A stretch of 64,000 nucleotides of DNA, taken from contig CAWAGI010000001.1 in NCBI GenBank assembly GCA_963781615.1, positions 710,793-774,792 on the forward strand, read 5' to 3'. Shown here piece by piece: positions 156 through 51,862 of this stretch. Each line of letters opens with the position of its first letter. Positions within the stretch are counted from its first letter, which is position 1. Below the pieces are notes generated by a model. It was not told where the DNA came from. It did no database searches and worked only from the letters and a program-made list of their open reading frames with translations. The translations under genes and the position numbers were made by a program. Origin of the DNA: an uncultured Actinomycetes bacterium (GTDB lineage Bacteria; Actinomycetota; Acidimicrobiia; IMCC26256; JACDBD01).

Positions 156-294
156 CCGGAACGCGGGTGTGAGACCGGTGAGGTCCCACACCCGCGTCCG
201 ACCGTGACGGATCACGGGTCCGATCGGATCACTGATCGCCGGGGGTGGCCACCGGTCGATCCTCTGCTCCGTGTCGGCCCAATCCATGGTTGCC

Positions 295-1218
295 TCAGCC
301 CAGCCCGATCGTCTGCAGAACGCCGTTGAGCTGGATCCCGGCAACGTTCTGACTCTGGTCGACCGATGTGTCGTTCGACTGGGTGTTGTTCGAGGTGTTG
401 CTACCAAGGAGCGTGAACTGCGGGTTGAAGTTCACGTTCTTGTTGTCGACGAAGGCGTGCGGCTTGTTCCACGCCTCCTGCTCGAGCTTGCCGTTCGACT
501 GGTCGGCGTCGTTCGACGGGTCGATCGGTGGGCCCACCCGGATCGACTGTCCCGCGACGTTGACCTGAGCCGCCTTGACGTTCTGGCTCTGGTCGATCGA
601 CGTCTCGTTCGACTGGGTGTTCGTCGAGGTGTTGCTACCAAGGAGCGTGAACTGCGGGTTGAAGTTCACGTTCTTGTTGTCGACCCACGAGAACGCCCAG
701 TTGCTCGCGTCTTGCTCCAACTTCTCGTTCTTCTGATCCGCGTCGTTCGACAGCGGCGGACCGCCACCCCCCAGCCAAGCGGCCGGAGCGTGGTTCACCG
801 AAATGCCTTGCCACAGGAGGTTCACCTGTGCGCCCTTGACATTCTGGCTCTGGTCGAGCCACGTGCTGTTCGACTGGTCATTGGTCGAGTCGTTGGCCCC
901 CAACAGCGCGAACTGCGGGTTCTTGTTGATGTTCTTGTTGTCGATCCAGGCGAACGGCGAGTTGTGAGCGTCCTGCTCCAGCTTGCCGTTGCACTGGTCG
1001 GCGTCGTTCGACACCTCGCTGTGCGACTTCTTGCCGAACGAAGCGACGCCGTCGGACCACGGCACCTCTCGGGTCAAGCCGTCCATCAACATGGGCCGGC
1101 GGTTGTTCTCCTGACACGGCTGCTCATGACCCCCGTCGATGAACGCACCGCTCGTCTGTGACAGTGCCACGACGACGGTCGCTCCCACGATGGCGAGCAG
1201 CGCCACGAACTTACGCAT
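295..1218 (-). CDS. secreted Asn/Gln-rich tandem-repeat protein (3 x ~78 aa)
   Basis: 307-aa ORF with a signal-like N-terminus (MRKFVALLAIVGATVVVALSQTSGA). It carries three repeats of SNDADQxNxKLEQ..DNKNVNFNPQFTLLGSNTSxNTQSNxTSxDQSQNV. An exact 60-nt DNA repeat lies at 391-450 and 625-684, a 234-nt period. Confidence 0.75.
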   Translation of the reverse strand: MRKFVALLAIVGATVVVALSQTSGAFIDGGHEQPCQENNRRPMLMDGLTREVPWSDGVASFGKKSHSEVSNDADQCNGKLEQDAHNSPFAWIDNKNINKNPQFALLGANDSTNDQSNSTWLDQSQNVKGAQVNLLWQGISVNHAPAAWLGGGGPPLSNDADQKNEKLEQDASNWAFSWVDNKNVNFNPQFTLLGSNTSTNTQSNETSIDQSQNVKAAQVNVAGQSIRVGPPIDPSNDADQSNGKLEQEAWNKPHAFVDNKNVNFNPQFTLLGSNTSNNTQSNDTSVDQSQNVAGIQLNGVLQTIGLG

Positions 1219-1281: not shown

Positions 1282-2114
1282 CTAGCCGGGCCGTTCGGGT
1301 AAGGCGCACCACGGCGCGGGGAACCACCCGATCGCCTCTCTCCGGAGGCGACGCCCGCTACCGAGGATGAGCAGGACGCCGGCGACGAGGATCCCGAGCA
1401 ACAACGAGCCGCTGTCGAGACCGTTCCCCGCCGAAGAGACCGCGGCCGTGCCGGTCGCCGCCAACGGCGGCTGACCCCACGGCGGCGCGCGCGTACCACC
1501 TTCCGGCGACGACGAGCTTGCGGCATGCAGCTCTGGTGTCGCGCGCGAATGCATTGCAGTTTTCGCACCGCCACCCGGAGCTGGCGGCGCGGCTCGTCGA
1601 CGCCTCCACCCGGTACAGGCGGATTCGGTGCCGCCCCGACCGCCTGAGCCTGTGACCCATCTGGCGGTGGAGGTGATGCCGGGGCGGTCGACACGTTCAC
1701 TCCGGGCGCGCTCACCGACACGGCCGGGAGCTCCGGCAGCAGCGGGACCGGCGGGACCTTCACGCTGACCGGCTCGGAAGGCAAGAGCGGTTGCAGCGCG
1801 GACAGGTCGACCGGAACCGGTACGTGCAGCATCGACGCGCCGATCGTCATGTCGATCGAGTCGGACGACCCGTCGTCCGGCTGGTCAGTTCCCTGGTGCG
1901 GACGCGGCGCCGCGCTCGCGTCGTCGGCGAGCGCCTCGGCGCGCGGCGTGCGGGCGAGGAGCAGCAACGCCACCACGAACAGACCGAGCAGGAGAAGGAA
2001 TCCGCCAAGCAGGGCGAGCTTGGGGCTGCTCAGTCGCCTTGCACTCTCCATTGCACTCTCTCGCGGGATCGATCCTGCGTACCGGGGTGACTTACCCCCA
2101 CGCGCTTCCGGCAA
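1282..2114 (-). CDS. membrane/cell-wall-associated proline-rich protein with LAxTG-like sorting signal; reading frame broken near 1585-1600
   Basis: ORF 1086..2114 makes sense only in its first ~170 aa: a TM helix (LALLGGFLLLLGLFVVALLLLA) followed by a Pro-rich stretch (VPVPVDLSALQPLLPSEPVSVKVPPVPLLPELP). ORF 1282..1554, in another frame, ends PPLAATG-TAAVSSAGNGLDSGS-LLLGILVAGVLLILG-SGRRLRRE. The likely start is ATG at 2051. Confidence 0.45.
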
Positions 2115-2268: not shown

Positions 2269-3681
2269 CTAACCGCCGATGCGGGAGTTGTACTCCTCGA
2301 TCTTGGCGTTGGCATCCTGCTTGGCCTGCTTCAGCGCCGCGCTCGGAGACATGCCGTTGAACATCTGCTGCTCCGAGTCGAGGACGGCGTCCCGAACGCC
2401 CTGGTAGTCGCCGATCACCGGGCCGGCGGTGGCAGTGTTGGTGACTCCTCCCACAAGTTGGTCGTAGGCCACCTTGAACCCCGGGTTCGCGGCCCAGTAC
2501 TGCTGCACCTGCGGCAGGTCGGCAGCCGACTGGCGGATCGGGATGTACCCCGTCGAGACGCTCCAATCGGCCTGATTCTCGGGATCGTTGAGGAACTTCG
2601 CGTATTGCCACGCGGCCGCCTGCTTCTCGGGCGAGGACTTGTTCACGATGTAGTTGGCGCCTCCGCCGACGAGCACGCCGCCCTTCCCCTTGGGGCCAGG
2701 CATCGGGGCAACCCCGAGCTCGACGTTCGGATACTGCCCACTCGAAAGCAGTTGCTGAATCGTGCCGAGCGCGGCGGAGGTGTCGATCGTCATGCCGAAG
2801 TTGCCGTTCCCGATGCCGATCAAGTTGTCGAACGCGCTCTGGCCTTCCGCGGAGTTGGTGCGCGCCAGGCCCTGACTCACCATGTCGTTCAGGAACGTGA
2901 AGCTCTCCTTGCCGGTCGCGTTGTCGAACGTCGTGCTGGTCGCGCGGCTCTTCCGCCCGTTGCCGTTGTTCACGTACGTCTTGCCACCCAGCGCCGACCA
3001 CTGCTCGAGGAACCACGGGTCGAGCTTCAACCCGAAGCCGGCCTGCGAGACCGTGCCGGAGTCCTTGAGCTTCTGGGCGGCGGACTTCACCTCATCGAGC
3101 GTCTTCGGCGGGTTGTTCGGATCGAGGCCGGCGGTTTGGAACGCCTTCTTGTTGAAATAGAAGATCGGATTCGACACGTTGAACGGCATCGGGTACAGCT
3201 TGCCCTTCACCGAGTAATAGTCGACGACCCGCTTGAGGTTGTCCGACAGGTCGTACTTGTCGGCGTCGACGCACGCCTGCGCCGGCAGGATCGCCTTCGT
3301 GTCGATCATCTGCTGGAGCCCCGTGTCCTCGATCTGGACGAGGTCCGGGAGGTCGCCGCTCGACAACCCGGCTCGGAACTTATTGAGCGTGTCGGCGTAC
3401 GTGGTCTGGTTGACGACCGTCACGCGCACGTCGTTCTGTGAAGAGTTGAACTTGTCGGTGAGGCGCAGGATCGCCTCCTCGTTGGCGCGCTGCAAACCGC
3501 CCTGCCAGTACGTGATCTCTACCGGCTTGTTCTTGGCGCTCTTGAGCGCCCCGAGGGGGCACTTCCCCGACTGCGCAGTGGCGGGGGCGGCACCGGCGAC
3601 CGGGACGGCAAGGCCGACCACGGTTAGCGCGGCGCCGGCGCCAAGGGCGGTGAGGCGCTTCGCGAGTCGGGACCTGAACAT
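2269..3681 (-). CDS. ABC transporter substrate-binding protein, carbohydrate (family 1, UgpB/MalE-like)
   Basis: This is the C-terminal 470 aa of ORF 2269..4374. The ATG at 3681 is preceded by AGGAG. It starts with a signal/lipoprotein-like N-terminus (MFRSRLAKRLTALGAGAALTVVGLAVPVAGAAPATAQSGKC) and the body is typical of sugar-binding proteins. Confidence 0.9.
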   Translation of the reverse strand: MFRSRLAKRLTALGAGAALTVVGLAVPVAGAAPATAQSGKCPLGALKSAKNKPVEITYWQGGLQRANEEAILRLTDKFNSSQNDVRVTVVNQTTYADTLNKFRAGLSSGDLPDLVQIEDTGLQQMIDTKAILPAQACVDADKYDLSDNLKRVVDYYSVKGKLYPMPFNVSNPIFYFNKKAFQTAGLDPNNPPKTLDEVKSAAQKLKDSGTVSQAGFGLKLDPWFLEQWSALGGKTYVNNGNGRKSRATSTTFDNATGKESFTFLNDMVSQGLARTNSAEGQSAFDNLIGIGNGNFGMTIDTSAALGTIQQLLSSGQYPNVELGVAPMPGPKGKGGVLVGGGANYIVNKSSPEKQAAAWQYAKFLNDPENQADWSVSTGYIPIRQSAADLPQVQQYWAANPGFKVAYDQLVGGVTNTATAGPVIGDYQGVRDAVLDSEQQMFNGMSPSAALKQAKQDANAKIEEYNSRIGG

Positions 3682-3707
3682 GGAGACTCCTGTTCTCGAT
3701 GGCACGG

Positions 3708-4613
3708 TCAGCCTTTCACGGCGCCGGCCGTAAGTCCGCGCACCAACTGCTTCTGGAAGATGAGCAGCAGGATGACGAGGGGGATGAACGCGATCACCGT
3801 GCCGGCGAACGTGACGTTGACCTGGTCGATGTTGGTCGCCCGTAGCTGCTTGAGTCCGATTTGCACGGTTCGCAGACGGTCGTCCTTCGTGACCAGCAGG
3901 GGCCACAGGTATTGGTTCCACGCGGAGAGGAACGAGAAGACGGCCAGCGCCGCGATCGTCGGCCGGGCGAGCGGGACGGCGACGCGGGCCAGGAAGCGTA
4001 GATGGCCGTAACCGTCGAGCTTCGCTGCGTCCTGCAGGTCCTTCGGGAGCTGGAGGAAAGTCTGCCGGAGCAGGAAAGCGCCGAATCCGGTGGCGAGGAA
4101 GGGCACCGCCAGCGCCGCGAACGTGTCGTACCACCCGAGCGTGTTGATCGTCTGGAGGTTCGTGACGATCGTGATCTCGAACGGCACCATCAGGGTCGCA
4201 AGGAACACCACGAACAAGGTTCGTTTGAGCGGGAAGCGAAGAAATGCGAAGGCGTAGCCGGCGAGGATCGCAGTCACGAGCTGGCCGATGACGATCAGGC
4301 CGGTCTGGATGAAGCTGTTCCTCAGGTACGTCGCAAGATGCCCGTCGGTCCACGCATCTGCGTACGTGTGCCACTCCGGTGAGGTCGGGAAAAACGTCGG
4401 CGACCTCGAAGCGATCTGGCTCGGTTGTAGGAGCGAGTTGACGATCGTGATGTAGATCGGGAACAGCACGACGAAGGCGAGGACCGACAAGGCCACGTAG
4501 CGCCCGAGGATCCGCAGCCGGCGGCCCCGCTTCCCCGGCCGGGCTGCCTCGACCTCCGTCCCCGCCTTACCAGACAACTCGGTGCCGCGGAGTGCGACCG
4601 GTTCAACGCTCAT
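3708..4613 (-). CDS. carbohydrate ABC transporter permease (MalG/UgpE-like)
   Basis: 301-aa multi-TM ORF containing an EAA-loop-like segment (KLDGYGHLRFLARVAVPLARP). It lies in an operon with the binding protein. Confidence 0.9.
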   Translation of the reverse strand: MSVEPVALRGTELSGKAGTEVEAARPGKRGRRLRILGRYVALSVLAFVVLFPIYITIVNSLLQPSQIASRSPTFFPTSPEWHTYADAWTDGHLATYLRNSFIQTGLIVIGQLVTAILAGYAFAFLRFPLKRTLFVVFLATLMVPFEITIVTNLQTINTLGWYDTFAALAVPFLATGFGAFLLRQTFLQLPKDLQDAAKLDGYGHLRFLARVAVPLARPTIAALAVFSFLSAWNQYLWPLLVTKDDRLRTVQIGLKQLRATNIDQVNVTFAGTVIAFIPLVILLLIFQKQLVRGLTAGAVKG

Positions 4614-5604
4614 ACGACACTCGCCGCTCGAGGAACTGGAACTGGACCAAAGTGAGGAGCAGCGTCACGCCGAACAGCGCAATGGCCAGCACTGCCGCCT
4701 TGCCGTCGTTCTTGGCGAACTGGAGCTGGTCGTAGATGAAGTACGTCAGCACGTTCGTCGTCTTCAACGGCCCACCCCGCGGTGTGAGGAGGTCGATCTG
4801 CCCGAAGGTCTGGAAGGCGAAGATCGAGCCGACGACGAACGCGAAGAAGATCGTCGGCGACAGCATCGGGAGCGTGATGCTCCAGAAGCGCGTCCACGGC
4901 CCGGCACCGTCGACCTCGGCCGCCTCCTGCACCTCCTCGGGAACGGCCTGGAGACCGGCCGACATCAGGATGAAGCTCAGTCCGAGGTTCTGCCAGATGG
5001 TCGTCACCGCCACCGCGACCAGCGCGACCGACGGGATGAAGCTCCGGATCACGGGCAGGTTGATGTTGATGATCGGGTCGGGGTTCTGGAGGATCGACGG
5101 CTCGGTCTGAATGCCCTGCAGGAGGCCGACCTGAGGGCTCAGCAGCGTGCCGAAGATCACGGACGCGACCGCGATCGACGTTGCCACCGTGGACGAGAAG
5201 AACGCCCGGTAGATCCCGACGCCCTTGAGCTTCTGGTGGGCGAGGACGGCGAGGAGGATGCCGAGGGCGATGCCGACCGGCACGGTGATGAAGGCGAAGG
5301 TGACCGTGACCTTGAGGCTGTCGAGGAACTCCGACGAGCTCAGCACGTCGCGGTATTGATCGAGACCGACAAAGTCCTTCGGCTGCCCCGGGAACGGCGG
5401 CGTCGAGAAGAAGCCGAGATAGAAGTTGCGGAGGAAGGGATAGAAGATGAACACGGCGAAGATCACGAACGCCGGGAGCAGCAGCAGGTAGCCGAGCCCG
5501 GCTTCACGCACGCCCCGACTGAAGCGACGCTTGCGCTGCGGCGGGGCGACGGAGGACACCTCGCCCGGGCTGAGGTCCAGCGCCGCGTCAGCGGGCGTAC
5601 TCAT
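4603..5604 (-). CDS. carbohydrate ABC transporter permease (MalF/UgpA-like)
   Basis: 333-aa multi-TM ORF containing EAAEVDGAGPWTRFWSITLPMLSP. It overlaps both neighbouring genes by a few nt. Confidence 0.9.
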   Translation of the reverse strand: MSTPADAALDLSPGEVSSVAPPQRKRRFSRGVREAGLGYLLLLPAFVIFAVFIFYPFLRNFYLGFFSTPPFPGQPKDFVGLDQYRDVLSSSEFLDSLKVTVTFAFITVPVGIALGILLAVLAHQKLKGVGIYRAFFSSTVATSIAVASVIFGTLLSPQVGLLQGIQTEPSILQNPDPIININLPVIRSFIPSVALVAVAVTTIWQNLGLSFILMSAGLQAVPEEVQEAAEVDGAGPWTRFWSITLPMLSPTIFFAFVVGSIFAFQTFGQIDLLTPRGGPLKTTNVLTYFIYDQLQFAKNDGKAAVLAIALFGVTLLLTLVQFQFLERRVSYER

Positions 5605-6689
5605 GCGTCGACGCGTTCTTCGGAGTCGGCGTCGAACACGTGCAGGCGCGACGCGTCGGTAGCGAGGTGGACCTCACTCGCTTCGGCCGGAGGCGCCACG
5701 TTCGCGGCCTGCCTCGCGATGATGAGCTGGCCGTCGTCGAGCCGGCAGATCACATGGCGCTCGTGTCCAAGGGACTCGATCACGGAAACGGTCGCCTTGA
5801 TCGGACCGACGTCGCCGATGGTCAGATCCTCGGGACGCACGCCCAGCACGACACGTTCGAGGCCCCGGCGCTCGAGCGCGGCCCCGAGCGGGGCAGGGAA
5901 CTCGACCACGCCGCCCGGGATCCGCACGCCCACGGCGCCGTCCACGCGGGTCACATCGCCCGCGACCGTGTTCATCGGTGGATTGCCGATGAAACGCGCC
6001 ACGAAAAGGTTCGCCGGGCGCGCGTACACGTCTCCAGGAACGCCTACTTGCTGCAGCACGCCTTGGTCGAGAATCGCGATGCGGTCCCCCATGGTCATCG
6101 CCTCGACCTGATCGTGGGTGACGTAGACGATCGTCGCGCGCAACCGGCGGCGGAGCTCGACGAGCTCGGCGCGGGTCTGCACCCGCAGCTTGGCATCCAG
6201 GTTGGAGAGCGGCTCGTCCATCAGGAACGCCTGCGGACGCCGGACAATGGCCCGGGCGAGCGCCACGCGTTGGCGCTGCCCGCCGGAGAGTTGTGCCGGC
6301 TTGCGATCGAGCAGGTTCTCGAGACCGAGGATCCCCGCCGCCTCGTGCACAAGGCGGTTCCGCTCGTTCGACGGAACCTTTCGGGTCTTCAGCGGGAACT
6401 CGACGTTCTTGCGCACGGTCATGTGCGGGTACAGCGCGTAGCTCTGGAAGACCATGGCGACGTCGCGGTCTTTCGCCTCGACGTCGTTGACCTGGCGGTC
6501 CCCGATCTCGATCGTGCCTTCGGTCGGCTCCTCGAGCCCGGCGATCATGCGGAGGGCGGTCGACTTCCCACAGCCGGACGGTCCGAGCAGGACGAGGAAC
6601 TCCTCGTCGGCCACCTCGAGGGTGAAGTCGTCGACCGCGGTGACATCGGCGAAGCGCTTCGTGACCCCACGGATGGCGACCCGACCCAC
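5601..6689 (-). CDS. ABC transporter ATP-binding protein (MalK/UgpC-like)
   Basis: 362 aa with Walker A (GPSGCGKST), the LSGGQRQR signature and Walker B (FLMDEPLS). The GTG start is preceded by GAGGAG. Confidence 0.92.
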   Translation of the reverse strand: MGRVAIRGVTKRFADVTAVDDFTLEVADEEFLVLLGPSGCGKSTALRMIAGLEEPTEGTIEIGDRQVNDVEAKDRDVAMVFQSYALYPHMTVRKNVEFPLKTRKVPSNERNRLVHEAAGILGLENLLDRKPAQLSGGQRQRVALARAIVRRPQAFLMDEPLSNLDAKLRVQTRAELVELRRRLRATIVYVTHDQVEAMTMGDRIAILDQGVLQQVGVPGDVYARPANLFVARFIGNPPMNTVAGDVTRVDGAVGVRIPGGVVEFPAPLGAALERRGLERVVLGVRPEDLTIGDVGPIKATVSVIESLGHERHVICRLDDGQLIIARQAANVAPPAEASEVHLATDASRLHVFDADSEERVDA

Positions 6690-6810: not shown

Positions 6811-9800
6811 TTGACCACTGTTCGCGTTCGCCCGGCCCACGACGGCGTTAGCCTGTGGAGCGAACAGCCCGGGGGGCTGGGGGGATATCGGGTGGGGCCG
6901 AAGCTGACGAGACGACGCCGGCACACGGAGACTGCCTCGCGCACGCCGCGCGATGACGACGCCCGCACCCAGGTCCCGGCGGACGACTCGGGCGAGCTCG
7001 TCATCCGGACCACCAGCGACGGCCGGTACACCTACGTCTCACCCTCCGTGCGGGACGTCCTCGGCTACGAGCCCGAGGAGCTGCTCGCGCAGGCACCGTT
7101 CGAGACCGTCCACCCGGACGACCTCAACCTGGTCGGCTCGGCCGGCGACCGGCTCGCCGCCGGCAGCGCGGCAGGAGTCGGTGCTGCTGCGGAAGCGACA
7201 CGCCGACGGTCACGACGTGTGGCTCGACGCCCGCATCGCCACGGTGCGCGACCCGGTCAGCGGCGAGGTCGTCGAGATCCATGCGACCGCGCGTGACGTC
7301 ACGACGCAGGTCGTCACCGAGCGCGCGCTGCAGCAGCGGGTCGGGGCCGAATCACTCATCGGTGACGTCTCCCGCGAGCTGCTCACGGCGAGCACCGACG
7401 AGATCGACGCCGTGGTGGTGCGCAGCCTGGAGCGGGCGGCCCGATTCGTCGGCGCCGAGCGGGCCAGCCTCGTGCTCGTGAGCCAGGACGGCGAGTCGGC
7501 GGTGAGGACCCACCAGTGGGCGACGGACCCCGAGTTCGAGCCCACCGAGAGCATGACCCGGATCGCATCCCTGCCCTGGCTCCTGGAGCGGTGCCGCGCC
7601 GGGGAGCTCGTGTTCGCGCGGTCGCTCGACGAGTTGCCGGCGGAAGCGGACGTCGAGCGGGCGGCGCTCGAGGGCGTGAGCAAGTCGCTGGCGTGCCTGC
7701 CGATCACGACCGAGGACCAGCTCACCGGCGGCCTCGCGTTCAACTGGATCAGCCGAGAGGCCGAGGACTGCACTCCCGCCCTGTCGACGCTCCGGGTCCT
7801 CGCCGACGTGCTCGTCGTCGCACTCGACCGCAAGCGCGCCGAGCAGGCGCGGGCGAGCTCAGAGGCGCGGTTCCGTTCACTCGTGCACGGCACGTCGGAT
7901 CTCATCGTCGTCACCGACCGCGACGGGATCACGCAGTACGTGAGCCCGTCAGTGCGGCAGTTCGGCTACACGGAGGACGCGGTGCTCGCGAAACCAGCGT
8001 TCGACTTCGTCCATCCGGACGACCTCGACCGTGTCGCCGAGCGGTTCCGAGCCACCATGACGGCCGACGCTCGCCGCGAGCCCATCGAGTTCCGGCTGCG
8101 GGACGGCGCCGGCGGTTGGAAGCTCGTCGAGGCGCTCGGCACCGACCAGCTCGACGACCCCGCGGTGCAGGGCGTCGTGATCAACGTCCGCGACATCACC
8201 GAGCGCAAGGAAGCCGAGAGCGCTCTCCGGGAGAACGAGGAGAGGTTCCGCGCACTCGTGCAGAACACGTCCGACGTGATCACGATGATGGACTCGGACG
8301 GGATGGTCACGTACGCAAGTCCGGCGATCGAGTCGATGTTCGGCGCGGAGCCCGGCCGGGTCATCGGAACCCGTGCGTTCGACTACATCCATCCCGACGA
8401 TCGTGAGCACCTGGCGAACGTGTACGCCGACGGGGTCGAACACCACCCGGGACGCGGCAAGGCCTTCCGGTACCGCATGCAGCATGCCGACGGGTCGTGG
8501 CGTCACGTCGAGACGATCGGCAACAACCTGCTCGGCGACCCCGCCGTGGGAGCGGTCGTGTTGACCACTCGGGACATCACGGAACGCCACACGGCGGCCG
8601 AGGCGTTGCGGCGGAGCGAAGAGCGCTTCCGCGCCCTGGTCCAACACGGGAGCGACATGATCACGGTGCTCGATGCGGACGGACGCGTCCTCTATGCGAG
8701 CCCGTCGGCCGGATCGATTCTCGGCTGGGAGGAGGGCGAGTATCTCGGGCGAACCACCTTTCGGTTGCTGCACCCGGAGGACCGCGAGCACGTCCGGCAG
8801 ACCTTTGCCGAGGCCGTCACCCGGCCCGGCTCCACGCAGACCATCCACTCGCGCATTCGGCACAGGAGCGGTGAGTACAGGCTCCTCGAGTCGATCGCCA
8901 CGAACCTGCTCGACGACCCGGCGGTGCGCGGCCTGGTCGTCAACAGCCGGGACATCACCGAGCGCCGGCAGCTCGAGAACGAGTTGCTCCAGTCACAGAA
9001 GATGGAGGCCGTCGGCCGGCTCGCCGGCGGCATCGCGCACGACTTCAACAACCTGCTGACGGCGATCGCGGGGTACACGGCCCTCCTCCTCGACGAGCAT
9101 CCCGAGGACGCTTCGCTCCGGGCGGATCTCGCCGAGATCGATCAGGCCGCGACGCGGGGCGCCGCGCTCGTCGACCAGCTGCTGTCATTCAGCCGGCGCA
9201 AGATGCTGATGCCGACGGTCCTCGATCTCAACGAGGTCGTCGAGTCCACCCGGGGGTTGCTGAGCCGGGTCATCGGCGCCGACGTGGAGCTCGTCACCCG
9301 CCTGGCGCGCAAGCTCGACGGGGTGCGTGCGGACCGCACGCAGCTCGAGCAGGTGCTCCTCAACCTGGCCGTGAACGCGCGGGACGCGATGCCGGAGGGT
9401 GGCCGCCTCGACATCGAGACCGCGAACGTGATGCTGCGGCGTCGCGACGTCGCCGGCCAGATCGACGCAACCGCGGGACCGCACGTGCTGCTCTTGGTGC
9501 GCGACTCCGGCGTGGGCATGGACCGGGAGACCCAGGCGCAGGTGTTCGAGCCGTTCTTCACCACGAAGGACATCGGCGAGGGCACCGGACTCGGGCTCTC
9601 GACGGCGTACGGGATCGTCACCCAGGCGGGCGGCCACATCTCGGTCGACAGCCGTCCCGGCGCCGGGACCACGTTCCGGGTCTACTTCCCGAAGGACAAG
9701 GACGACCCGCCGGCGTCGGCGCCGGGGGCAGGTGACGCGTCGCCGCGTACGGGGCGGGAGACGATCCTCCTCGTCGAAGACGAGTCGGCGGTGCGCAGCC

Positions 9801-10120
9801 TCGCCCGGGACGTGCTCACCCGCCTCGGGTACGAGGTGCTGGTCGCGGCAGACGGCCACGAGGCGCTGAAGGTGGCCGACCATTGTCGCCGGCGGATCAA
9901 CCTGCTCGTGAGCGACGTCGTCCTGCCGCATCTGCGGGGCGTGGAGGTCGCCGATCGGCTCCGGGCACGCCGCCCCGGTCTTCGGGTCCTCTATATCTCC
10001 GGCTACACCGAGACGGCCATCGTCCACGACGGGCAGCTCGATCCCGGCGTCGACTTCCTCGCCAAGCCGTTCCGTCCCGCCGACCTCGCCAACCGGGTGC
10101 GTGAGGTCCTCGATGCCTAG
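6811..10120 (+). CDS. hybrid sensor histidine kinase: PAS - GAF - 3x PAS - HisKA - HATPase_c - REC; frame break inside first PAS (~7158-7180)
   Basis: ORF 6811..7296 encodes the N-half of PAS1 (ELVIRTTSDGRYTYVSPSVRDVLGYEPEELLAQAPFETVHPDDL). ORF 6953..10120 becomes sensible at ESVLLRKRHADGHDVWLDARIATVRD. Further on come the H-box (AGGIAHDFNNLL), the G-boxes (DSGVGM, GTGLGLS) and a REC domain (ILLVEDESAVR...LLVSDVVLP). Confidence 0.85.
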
Positions 10121-36732: not shown

Positions 36733-37134
<402 letters not shown>

Positions 37135-51829: not shown

Positions 51830-51862
51830 ACAGAATCCGGCGTACAGGCCGACTCGCCACCC
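51830..51862 (+). repeat. 33-nt direct repeat, copy 2 (orphan copy of the rnpB 3' end; putative attR)
   Basis: It is identical to 37102-37134. No other RNase P sequence surrounds it. Confidence 0.9.

Follow-up and report, generated by a model that had tools for sequence, protein, structure and literature searches.

A gene for a secreted Asn/Gln-rich repeat protein

We analysed a 64,000-nucleotide stretch of DNA from an uncultured Actinomycetes bacterium of the class Acidimicrobiia (contig CAWAGI010000001.1, positions 710,793 to 774,792; hereafter the window). Near its beginning, two genes lie one behind the other on the minus strand: one encodes a 307-aa secreted Asn/Gln-rich protein made of three repeats (295..1218, here called the target; ATG start, stop codon at 295-297) and the other, upstream of it, a proline-rich membrane protein, its partner (1282..2051). 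A preliminary description of the sequence had picked out the repeat protein and had missed both the minus strand and the membrane-anchored partner module.

The target gene is present in a single copy within the 64-kb window. A Shine-Dalgarno sequence, AAGGAG, lies at 1225-1230 on the minus strand, 6 nt ahead of the ATG, and the junction '...KEHH|M' at the target start recurs in related loci. GC content is 0.89 at third codon positions (GC3) and 0.40 at second positions (GC2), in a window of 68% GC, which is native coding usage. As long spurious open reading frames (ORFs) are common in GC-rich genomes, and as a plus-strand ORF (271..1161) overlaps the gene, we considered whether 295-1218 might itself be a chance ORF. 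The likelihood of this is negligible: the idea is refuted by conservation at the protein level, with 44 homologues that retain length and invariant columns and with related metatranscriptome contigs, and both the GC3/GC2 values and the strong Shine-Dalgarno sequence speak against it. The stretch 295-1218 is a real, conserved gene for a secreted-type protein. A promoter and terminator scan of the locus gave nothing useful.

Residues 1-25 (MRKFVALLAIVGATVVVALSQTSGA|F; 1144..1218, minus), read by eye from the sequence, form a predicted signal peptide with a Sec-type N-terminus, consisting of MRK, a hydrophobic core of 16 residues and S-G-A|F. L7, L8, A9 and A25 are invariant across the family (alignment A1). 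Neither a lipobox nor a twin arginine was seen on reading the signal peptide, and the protein has no C-terminal sorting signal. The mature protein starts with a variable segment (residues 26-69; 1012..1143, minus; alignment A1), which carries a conserved EQPCQE motif with Cys35. Cys34/35 is present in 31 of 31 aligned proteins, and a second cysteine is found at position 76 or 81, in repeat 1, never at both. A disulfide between the two cysteines probably pins the N-terminal segment to repeat 1 at the first hairpin, and the segment fixed in this way could be a cap.

Three repeats of unequal length

The preliminary description had claimed three tandem repeats of ~78 aa, a DNA period of 234 nt and an exact DNA repeat of 60 nt. 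The number of repeats stands, but their length is not uniform, as residues 70-156, 157-234 and 235-307 make up units of 87, 78 and 73 aa. Comparison of the repeats at the DNA and protein levels places repeat 1, which includes a long W/G-rich linker (LLWQGISVNHAPAAWLGGGGPPL), at 751..1011 and repeat 2, with the linker VGPPIDP at its end, at 517..750; repeat 3, with the conserved C-terminus LQLN..Q.IGLG, was placed at 298..516 by repeat comparison and alignment A1 (all on the minus strand). The corresponding DNA copies span 220 nt each (298-517, 532-751 (80% identity) and 793-1012 (70% identity)) and are spaced by 234 and 261 nt, the linker of copy 1 being longer by 9 codons. Therefore, the 78-codon period applies only between copies 2 and 3. 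The exact repeat was recovered by an exact-repeat search as a tract of 61 nt, at 390..450 in repeat 3, where it encodes VDNKNVNFNPQFTLLGSNTS, and again at 624..684 in repeat 2. It is the longest exact direct repeat of the window. Both copies of the tract contain the rare codons CTT and GGT, and repeats 2 and 3 use identical codons at 41 of the 48 positions at which they share the amino acid, compared with 32.8 expected from codon usage. Tandem Repeats Finder at default settings did not report the array.

Of the residues in the repeat region, 16% are Asn and 10% are Gln; for the remaining coding ORFs of the window, the figures are 1.9% and 2.9%. Together, Asn and Gln reach 26% (background ~5%), and I, L, V, F, M and W account for 23%. 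Asn is thus enriched about eight-fold, via AT-rich codons, in a GC-rich genome.

All full-length Acidimicrobiia-type members have three units per protein. A short-read contig from a soil metagenome (Logan) jumps from 389 to 624 through the 61-nt tract and thereby loses exactly 234 nt; four two-repeat proteins (P0027, P0029, P0034 and P0041; 226-237 aa, on ~1-kb contigs) show the same hybrid structure and may reflect assembly collapse instead of natural copy-number variants. Because short-read assemblers collapse the 61-nt exact repeat, comparison of copy number among relatives is confounded.

Two uncharacterised families with related repeat units

Among 5.8 billion proteins, the target has 44 relatives, all of them unnamed or 'hypothetical', which come from soil metagenomes and Acidimicrobiia metagenome-assembled genomes (MAGs). 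Full-length members are 290-347 aa long and 44-75% identical. Searching 1.84 billion cluster representatives with a profile brought in nothing more than fragments and a single distant protein. In a set of 185,579 species-representative genomes, the family occurs in four: two 'MFD' MAGs and two 'SMAG' Acidimicrobiia. The MFD genomes derive from Nanopore sequencing of Danish soils (PMC12313526).

Members share a signal peptide, the Cys35 segment and three repeat units with the pattern N-x-A-x-Q-x-N ... Q-x-A-x-N-x-P ... N-x-N-x-x-PQ ... G-x-N-x3-N-x-Q-x-N ... DQSQ ... A-x-Q-x-N ... Q, and the window protein has every invariant column of alignment A1. Sequence and profile comparisons of the target with Pfam, NCBIfam, PHROGs, PADLOC and PDB gave no match. 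This agrees with the preliminary description, which had seen a secreted protein with three Asn/Gln-rich repeats and had not recognised its family: searches of Pfam, NCBIfam, PDB and protein collections led to no known family. A confident match to a globular enzyme or lectin would have spoken against that description, and the database scans yielded none. As judged by sequence comparison, target and partner each define a new family of uncultured soil Actinomycetota. A literature search on amyloid in Acidimicrobiia or Gaiellales found nothing relevant.

The distant protein from the profile search (P0059) is homologous to the target family (hhalign probability 95%) and opened a sister family of 52 proteins (P0059 and P0073-P0123), one of which is labelled Gaiellaceae. 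These proteins are 242-571 aa long and have two to five units and Cys-Cys linkers. The unit profiles of the two families align at 92% probability (hhalign), at a divergence of ~30% identity. Both families have a signal peptide, a period-2 pattern of conservation (below) and an upstream partner whose C-terminus combines a transmembrane (TM) segment with GxGRRL...ERPG. The sister family differs in its G/Q-richer unit, GDQ..EQ.NDADVTQ.QGNGNVNVSPAIAIFGDA.T.N.QGNGN, and in its locus order, gyrB-gyrA-partner-target-GerE regulator. Like the target family, it is uncharacterised.

In the Gaiellaceae-type loci, a gene for a GerE/LuxR-family helix-turn-helix protein of 86-89 aa lies 33-70 nt downstream of the repeat gene on the same strand (L012, 6752-7021; L013, 4275-4544; L014, 6676-6945; L015, 3839-4099). 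It is followed by Band_7/NfeD genes and then by a wall hydrolase of the Amidase_2 family (Rv3811_N-type). The GerE/LuxR protein is possibly a dedicated regulator of the Gaiellaceae-type pair; no GerE-type gene adjoins the Acidimicrobiia-type pair.

Target and partner form an obligate two-gene module

The partner gene (1282..2051, minus) was located by tblastn with intact partners. It encodes an N-terminal signal/TM segment (MESARRLSSPKLALLGGFLLLLGLFVVALLLLA), a Pro-rich stretch and a C-terminal TM segment, and ends in GSGRRLRREAIGWFPAPWCALPERPG*. Its C-terminus ends at 1285, with the stop codon at 1282-1284, leaving a gap of 63 nt to the target ATG at 1218. Wherever the target of an Acidimicrobiia-type locus is intact and the sequence reaches far enough upstream, a partner lies upstream on the same strand, at a distance of 60-85 nt; this holds for 19 of 19 such loci (the window, L001, L002/L008, L003-L007 and eleven metagenome contigs besides). 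All four Gaiellaceae-type loci have a partner too, although the low-complexity middle of the protein is unrelated there. Across both families, no intact target without a partner was found in loci with enough upstream sequence. Target and partner are an obligate two-gene module kept across two actinomycete classes.

The surroundings of the pair are less constant. In most Acidimicrobiia loci, the pair lies between the genes of an ATP-binding cassette (ABC) sugar transporter and a thiolase/CoA-transferase cluster, but the flanks of L003 differ from these. As the flanks vary between lineages, the pair itself is the conserved unit. In three further loci (L009, near 4835; L010, near 6001; L029, near 2501), the target begins mid-gene, at most ~100 nt past the gene for the ABC binding protein, and partner, start codon and signal peptide are absent. 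The junction is different in each of them and all three are short-read assemblies, so these loci represent deletions or misassemblies.

Partner proteins, of which 13 homologues were found, consist of a signal peptide with an ...ASPASA|Q site, 150-300 Pro/Ala/Ser-rich residues, a C-terminal membrane helix and an invariant GxGRR. A conserved tail extends about 18-20 residues past the basic cluster and has ERPG as its last residues; the C-terminus of the Gaiellaceae-type partners reads ...AAPGxGRRLR..LAPW.LP...LSLERPG. Searches of Pfam and NCBIfam with three Acidimicrobiia-type partners and one Gaiellaceae-type partner revealed neither a family match nor a known sorting signal. The ERPG tail is unlike the known sorting signals LPxTG/LAxTG, PEP-CTERM and GlyGly-CTERM; an LAATG occurs in the window copy of the partner only, and this motif is not conserved.

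In the window, the partner gene changes frame near 1593-1620, with tblastn matches in frame -3 for 2060-1599 and in frame -2 for 1593-1285. Such a change affects all four Nanopore-derived loci (the window, L001, L007 and L008), at varying places and in varying directions, and the partner frame is intact in the short-read loci L003 (4677-5621), L004 (113-973) and L006 (7156-7935). There is no long homopolymer at the frame junction in the window, and no short-read contigs over 1400-2280 of the window were found. The likeliest explanation is an assembly error in GC-rich, low-complexity DNA. At the partner position of L003, the public gene call is a 397-aa ORF on the minus strand (4322-5515), opposite to the partner on the plus strand; in L006, no gene was called in the 1-kb gap that holds the partner. 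That gene finders systematically miss or mis-strand this Pro-rich, GC-rich gene helps to explain why the module has so far gone unnoticed.

A tight cassette of a small secreted and a small membrane protein, both of them lineage-restricted orphans, could also encode a soluble, bacteriocin-like or otherwise inhibitory effector together with an immunity, export or processing factor. One partner indeed matched a YxzE-like bacteriocin model, although only weakly and below threshold (E 0.22, which is noise level). We consider an effector improbable. In the Acidimicrobiia genomes examined, the locus is syntenic and neither mobile nor variable; PADLOC and PHROGs gave no match; and the composition of the target and its period-2 pattern are unlike those of known bacteriocins. 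Moreover, we know of no immunity protein with a parallel to the 150-300-aa Pro-rich extracellular spacer of the partner.

Repeats within a protein evolve in concert

Comparison of repeats within and between proteins showed that the identity among the repeats of one protein is steady at 0.70-0.72, whereas the identity of same-position repeats between proteins drops from 0.84 to 0.47 with divergence. In the most divergent pairs, repeats at the same position are as identical as repeats that do not correspond. Repeats resemble their paralogues more than their orthologues in all 166 protein pairs with less than 60% orthologous identity. Lineage-specific motifs, such as EADIDQSQEQEAAQ and VVPINANVAPQ, appear in all three repeats together. 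Features tied to one position are retained: repeat 1 keeps its Cys and W, the linker between repeats 1 and 2 stays long, and repeat 3 keeps AGALQLN. The three repeats evolve in concert.

The 61-nt identical tract and the rare codons shared by its two copies show that gene conversion contributes to this pattern. If equivalent residues of the repeats stack on each other, selection for matching repeats would produce the same pattern, and the likeness of the repeats in every lineage fits a need for them to match. Identity at synonymous sites is 0.72-0.85, compared with a codon-bias baseline of ~0.68, values at which conversion and structural coupling are not separable.

Conservation with period 2 points to a beta architecture

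Across 93 repeat units, conservation alternates with a period of 2 over ~70 residues. Autocorrelation of the unit conservation is +0.61 at lag 2 and -0.49 at lag 1, and none of 5000 permutations was as extreme. The phase shifts only at N8-G9-K10 and at P32-Q33, and the same periodicity is seen in the sister family. One face of the unit is conserved (N-A-Q-N / L-Q-A-N-P-A-V-N-N-N-N / F-L-G-N-S-N-Q-N-T-I-Q-Q / A-Q-N-Q-I), whereas the opposite face is variable, often charged and rich in D, K, E, S and T. A period of 2 over the whole unit lends indirect support to beta strands with a polar conserved side and to a repetitive beta architecture. A face of N, Q, A and S is unlike the hydrophobic core of a beta sandwich and argues for a resemblance to Asn/Gln-ladder cores of the curli and prion types. 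An EF-hand-like calcium site in DADQSNGKLEQE was considered and rejected, because its Asp positions vary and it is N, A, Q and N that are invariant.

A tentative model of a surface fibre or coat

Overall, we tentatively favour a model, to which we assign somewhat less than an even chance, in which the target, an all-beta subunit that is secreted and has no anchor, associates with further copies of itself through the conserved Asn/Gln face; the surface fibre or coat built in this way would be held in place or seeded by the partner. The host, a soil actinomycete of the monoderm type, would carry this structure on its cell surface. Once exported by the Sec route and freed of its signal peptide, the mature protein of ~28 kDa would fold into an all-beta array, with one strand face near-invariant and polar (N, Q, A, S and D-Q-S-Q) and the other free to vary. 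Asn/Gln ladders would form where equivalent residues stack, both from repeat to repeat and from one molecule to its neighbour, and self-association through the conserved polar face would give rise to a fibre or coat resembling functional amyloid. The partner might hold the assembly at the cell surface or seed it there: its Pro/Ala-rich spacer of 150-300 aa would be long enough to span the wall, with the ERPG tail presumably cytoplasmic. We infer the beta fold, the ladder stacking, the polymerisation and the tethering or nucleating role of the partner from these patterns.

Several findings weigh against this model. The target has no sequence or profile similarity to known amyloid subunits or solenoids (Pfam, PDB and CsgA/CsgB), and the partner, unlike CsgB or the long chaplins, has no subunit-like domain. 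Profile self-comparison of the unit detected no internal sub-repeat of 20-26 aa. Mutual information with average product correction, computed over 126 units (effective number of sequences (Neff) 50), gave only a turn signal at 31-34 and scattered pairs. The mutually exclusive cysteines at 76 and 81 and the palindromic N-A-Q...Q-A-N would fit an antiparallel hairpin at the beginning of each unit at least as well as, and perhaps better than, curli-type parallel arches, and the Cys-stapled N-terminal segment could keep the protein monomeric. Concerted evolution can be explained by gene conversion alone. Finally, AlphaFold2 reached a predicted local distance difference test (pLDDT) score of only 36 for the whole protein with a 31-row alignment, in a model that has long strands in each repeat and is too uncertain to trust, and of 42 for repeats 2 and 3 with a 75-row alignment, in which repeats 1-2 and 2-3 of every homologue were stacked; the second model was likewise too poor to use.

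Very low AlphaFold2 confidence throughout, a highly polar sequence and ongoing conversion, as indicated by the 61-nt exact tract and shared rare codons, would also suit a hydrophilic, largely disordered matrix or water-retaining protein whose repeats are homogenised by gene conversion only. Low pLDDT is, however, expected for an orphan family with a Neff of ~2-3 whatever its structure. A strict period of 2 over ~70 residues and invariant N, Q, A, P and G, retained in two families that are ~30% identical, make a disordered protein very improbable.

The main rival to a self-associating subunit is a monomeric, disulfide-capped beta-repeat protein, which would use a flat N/Q/S/T face to bind ice, mineral or crystalline polysaccharide and which the partner would display on a Pro-rich stalk. 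Ice-binding proteins and similar beta-solenoids carry regular, conserved arrays of N, T and S on one face. The conserved N-terminal segment with its obligatory Cys pair suggests capping, the number of units is always three in full-length Acidimicrobiia members, and the hosts live in soil, where they encounter freezing and mineral surfaces. Nonetheless, with the polar face turned outwards, the variable D/K/E/S/T face would make a poor core, and neither Pfam, NCBIfam nor PDB revealed similarity to ice-binding, adhesin or carbohydrate-binding families. In addition, changes that are specific to a lineage turn up in each of the three repeats, also next to the conserved face, as in EADIDQSQEQEAAQ. 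On balance, we regard a capped monomer as a serious but rather unlikely alternative.

Relation to known fibre-forming systems

Curli offer the closest comparison in several respects. Like the target, CsgA and CsgB are secreted, N/Q-rich proteins of imperfect repeats in which alternate N, Q, A, S and G positions are conserved, and their genes adjoin that of a second protein with a presumed role at the cell surface. A LuxR-type regulator is common to curli (CsgD) and the Gaiellaceae-type loci (the GerE/LuxR gene beside the pair). The curli unit is, however, 19-23 aa long (S-x5-Q-x-G-x2-N-x-A-x3-Q), whereas the target unit has 73-87 aa and no sub-repeat. The csgBAC-csgDEFG system belongs to Proteobacteria and Bacteroidota, in contrast to the monoderm actinomycete host of the target, and the target's partner is a Pro-rich bitopic membrane protein and, unlike in curli, no paralogue of the subunit. 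No csgE/F/G-like genes were found among the neighbours of either family (ABC, thiolase/CoA-transferase or gyrBA/GerE/NfeD genes). Membership in the curli family was rejected, as there was no match to PF07012 (Curlin_rpt) at E<=10 and hhalign comparison of both the family profile and the repeat-unit profile with E. coli K-12 CsgA/CsgB gave probabilities of 0.2-1.0%. The view of the preliminary description that the target is curlin-like in composition only is therefore borne out.

FapC of Pseudomonas has a signal peptide, three imperfect repeats with linkers and a conserved C-terminus in ~250-340 aa rich in N, Q, A, G and S. Going by this description, its overall plan is the same as that of the target, but host phylum and envelope type differ. 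No Pfam or NCBIfam family matched the target, and the Acidimicrobiia loci contain no fapABDEF-like neighbours.

The chaplins ChpA-H of Streptomyces come from the same phylum as the target and are likewise small, secreted, surface-assembling proteins with paired cysteines; they also share with the target module the principle of combining free subunits with a component that is anchored. Their domains are, in contrast, ~40 aa long and hydrophobic, whereas the target is strongly hydrophilic, and PF03777 did not match it. In chaplins, anchoring falls to a long chaplin that bears a sortase signal, whereas the partner has neither a subunit-like domain nor a conserved LAxTG.

N/Q-rich prion domains and the HET-s beta-solenoid resemble the target in their high N/Q content and in the proposed stacking of Asn/Gln ladders between equivalent residues of successive layers (in register, as in 'superpleated' beta models), and the two pseudo-repeats of HET-s are kept alike, as are the target repeats. 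These proteins differ in being intracellular and eukaryotic and have no sequence relation to the target. Moreover, its N/Q positions are strictly conserved, whereas yeast prion domains are driven by composition.

The module resembles curli, Fap and chaplins in its logic, in which a secreted subunit made of repeats is paired with a partner at the surface, but it fails every membership test that we ran for them. That it represents a new Gram-positive functional-amyloid or beta-fibre system of Acidimicrobiia and Gaiellales, two abundant soil lineages without cultured members, unrelated to curli, Fap, chaplins and TasA, is a more far-reaching proposal that we consider doubtful; one unit of 73-87 aa, unusually large and stabilised by invariant Asn/Gln ladders, would then make up each cross-beta layer, and a dedicated bitopic Pro-rich partner with a new C-terminal GxGRRL...ERPG module would nucleate and tether the fibre.

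The family is transcribed in soil

The target gene shares 31-mers with soil metagenomes and with metatranscriptome runs, of which there are at least 24, drawn from many studies (23 labelled as soil and one as freshwater sediment). Metatranscriptome contigs from soil and sediment are 85-90% identical to the gene over the repeat region. In runs X22, X23 and X27, word depth on the repeat region was 12-42, compared with ~1-5 on most flanking genes, whereas in X21 the ABC-transporter genes were as deep as the target or deeper; the comparison is rough, as it uses contig depth and relatives of the source organism, with DNA carry-over possible. Together, these data indicate that the family is transcribed in nature, in soil relatives.

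Other features of the window

A complete sugar-type ABC operon (minus, 2269-6689) lies upstream of the pair. It comprises genes for an ATPase (5601-6689), two permeases (4603-5604 and 3708-4613) and a solute-binding protein that ends at 2269. Divergent from it is a gene for a 1055-aa multi-PAS hybrid histidine kinase with a receiver domain (6953-10120, plus), and the synteny of operon and kinase is retained in most related Acidimicrobiia loci.

Further along the window, we found the RNase P RNA gene, rnpB (36735-37132; Rfam RF00010, 244 bits). Its last 31 nt (37102-37132), together with two further bases, recur as a 33-nt exact direct repeat at 37102-37134 and 51830-51862, 14.7 kb apart. The pair of repeats resembles the att sites of an element integrated at the 3' end of rnpB. 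The ten largest ORFs between the repeats are metabolic or regulatory (including DUF2252, AraC, PPK2, diacylglycerol kinase, major facilitator superfamily and GH15-like proteins), and no integrase was found between them.

Implications for uncultured soil actinomycetes

Few soil Actinomycetota are as common as Acidimicrobiia and Gaiellales, or as rarely cultured, and to our knowledge the cell surfaces of these two groups are almost wholly undescribed. The conserved, transcribed two-gene module is a concrete candidate for a coat, fibre or adhesive layer of these bacteria, with a bearing on aggregation, particle attachment and desiccation tolerance. The C-terminal module of the partner may be a new sorting or anchoring signal. 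The target itself would be a natural design of beta repeats that combines a polar core with a long unit; it has no relative in Pfam or PDB, current structure prediction fails for it, and it provides a clean example of repeats kept alike through concerted evolution.

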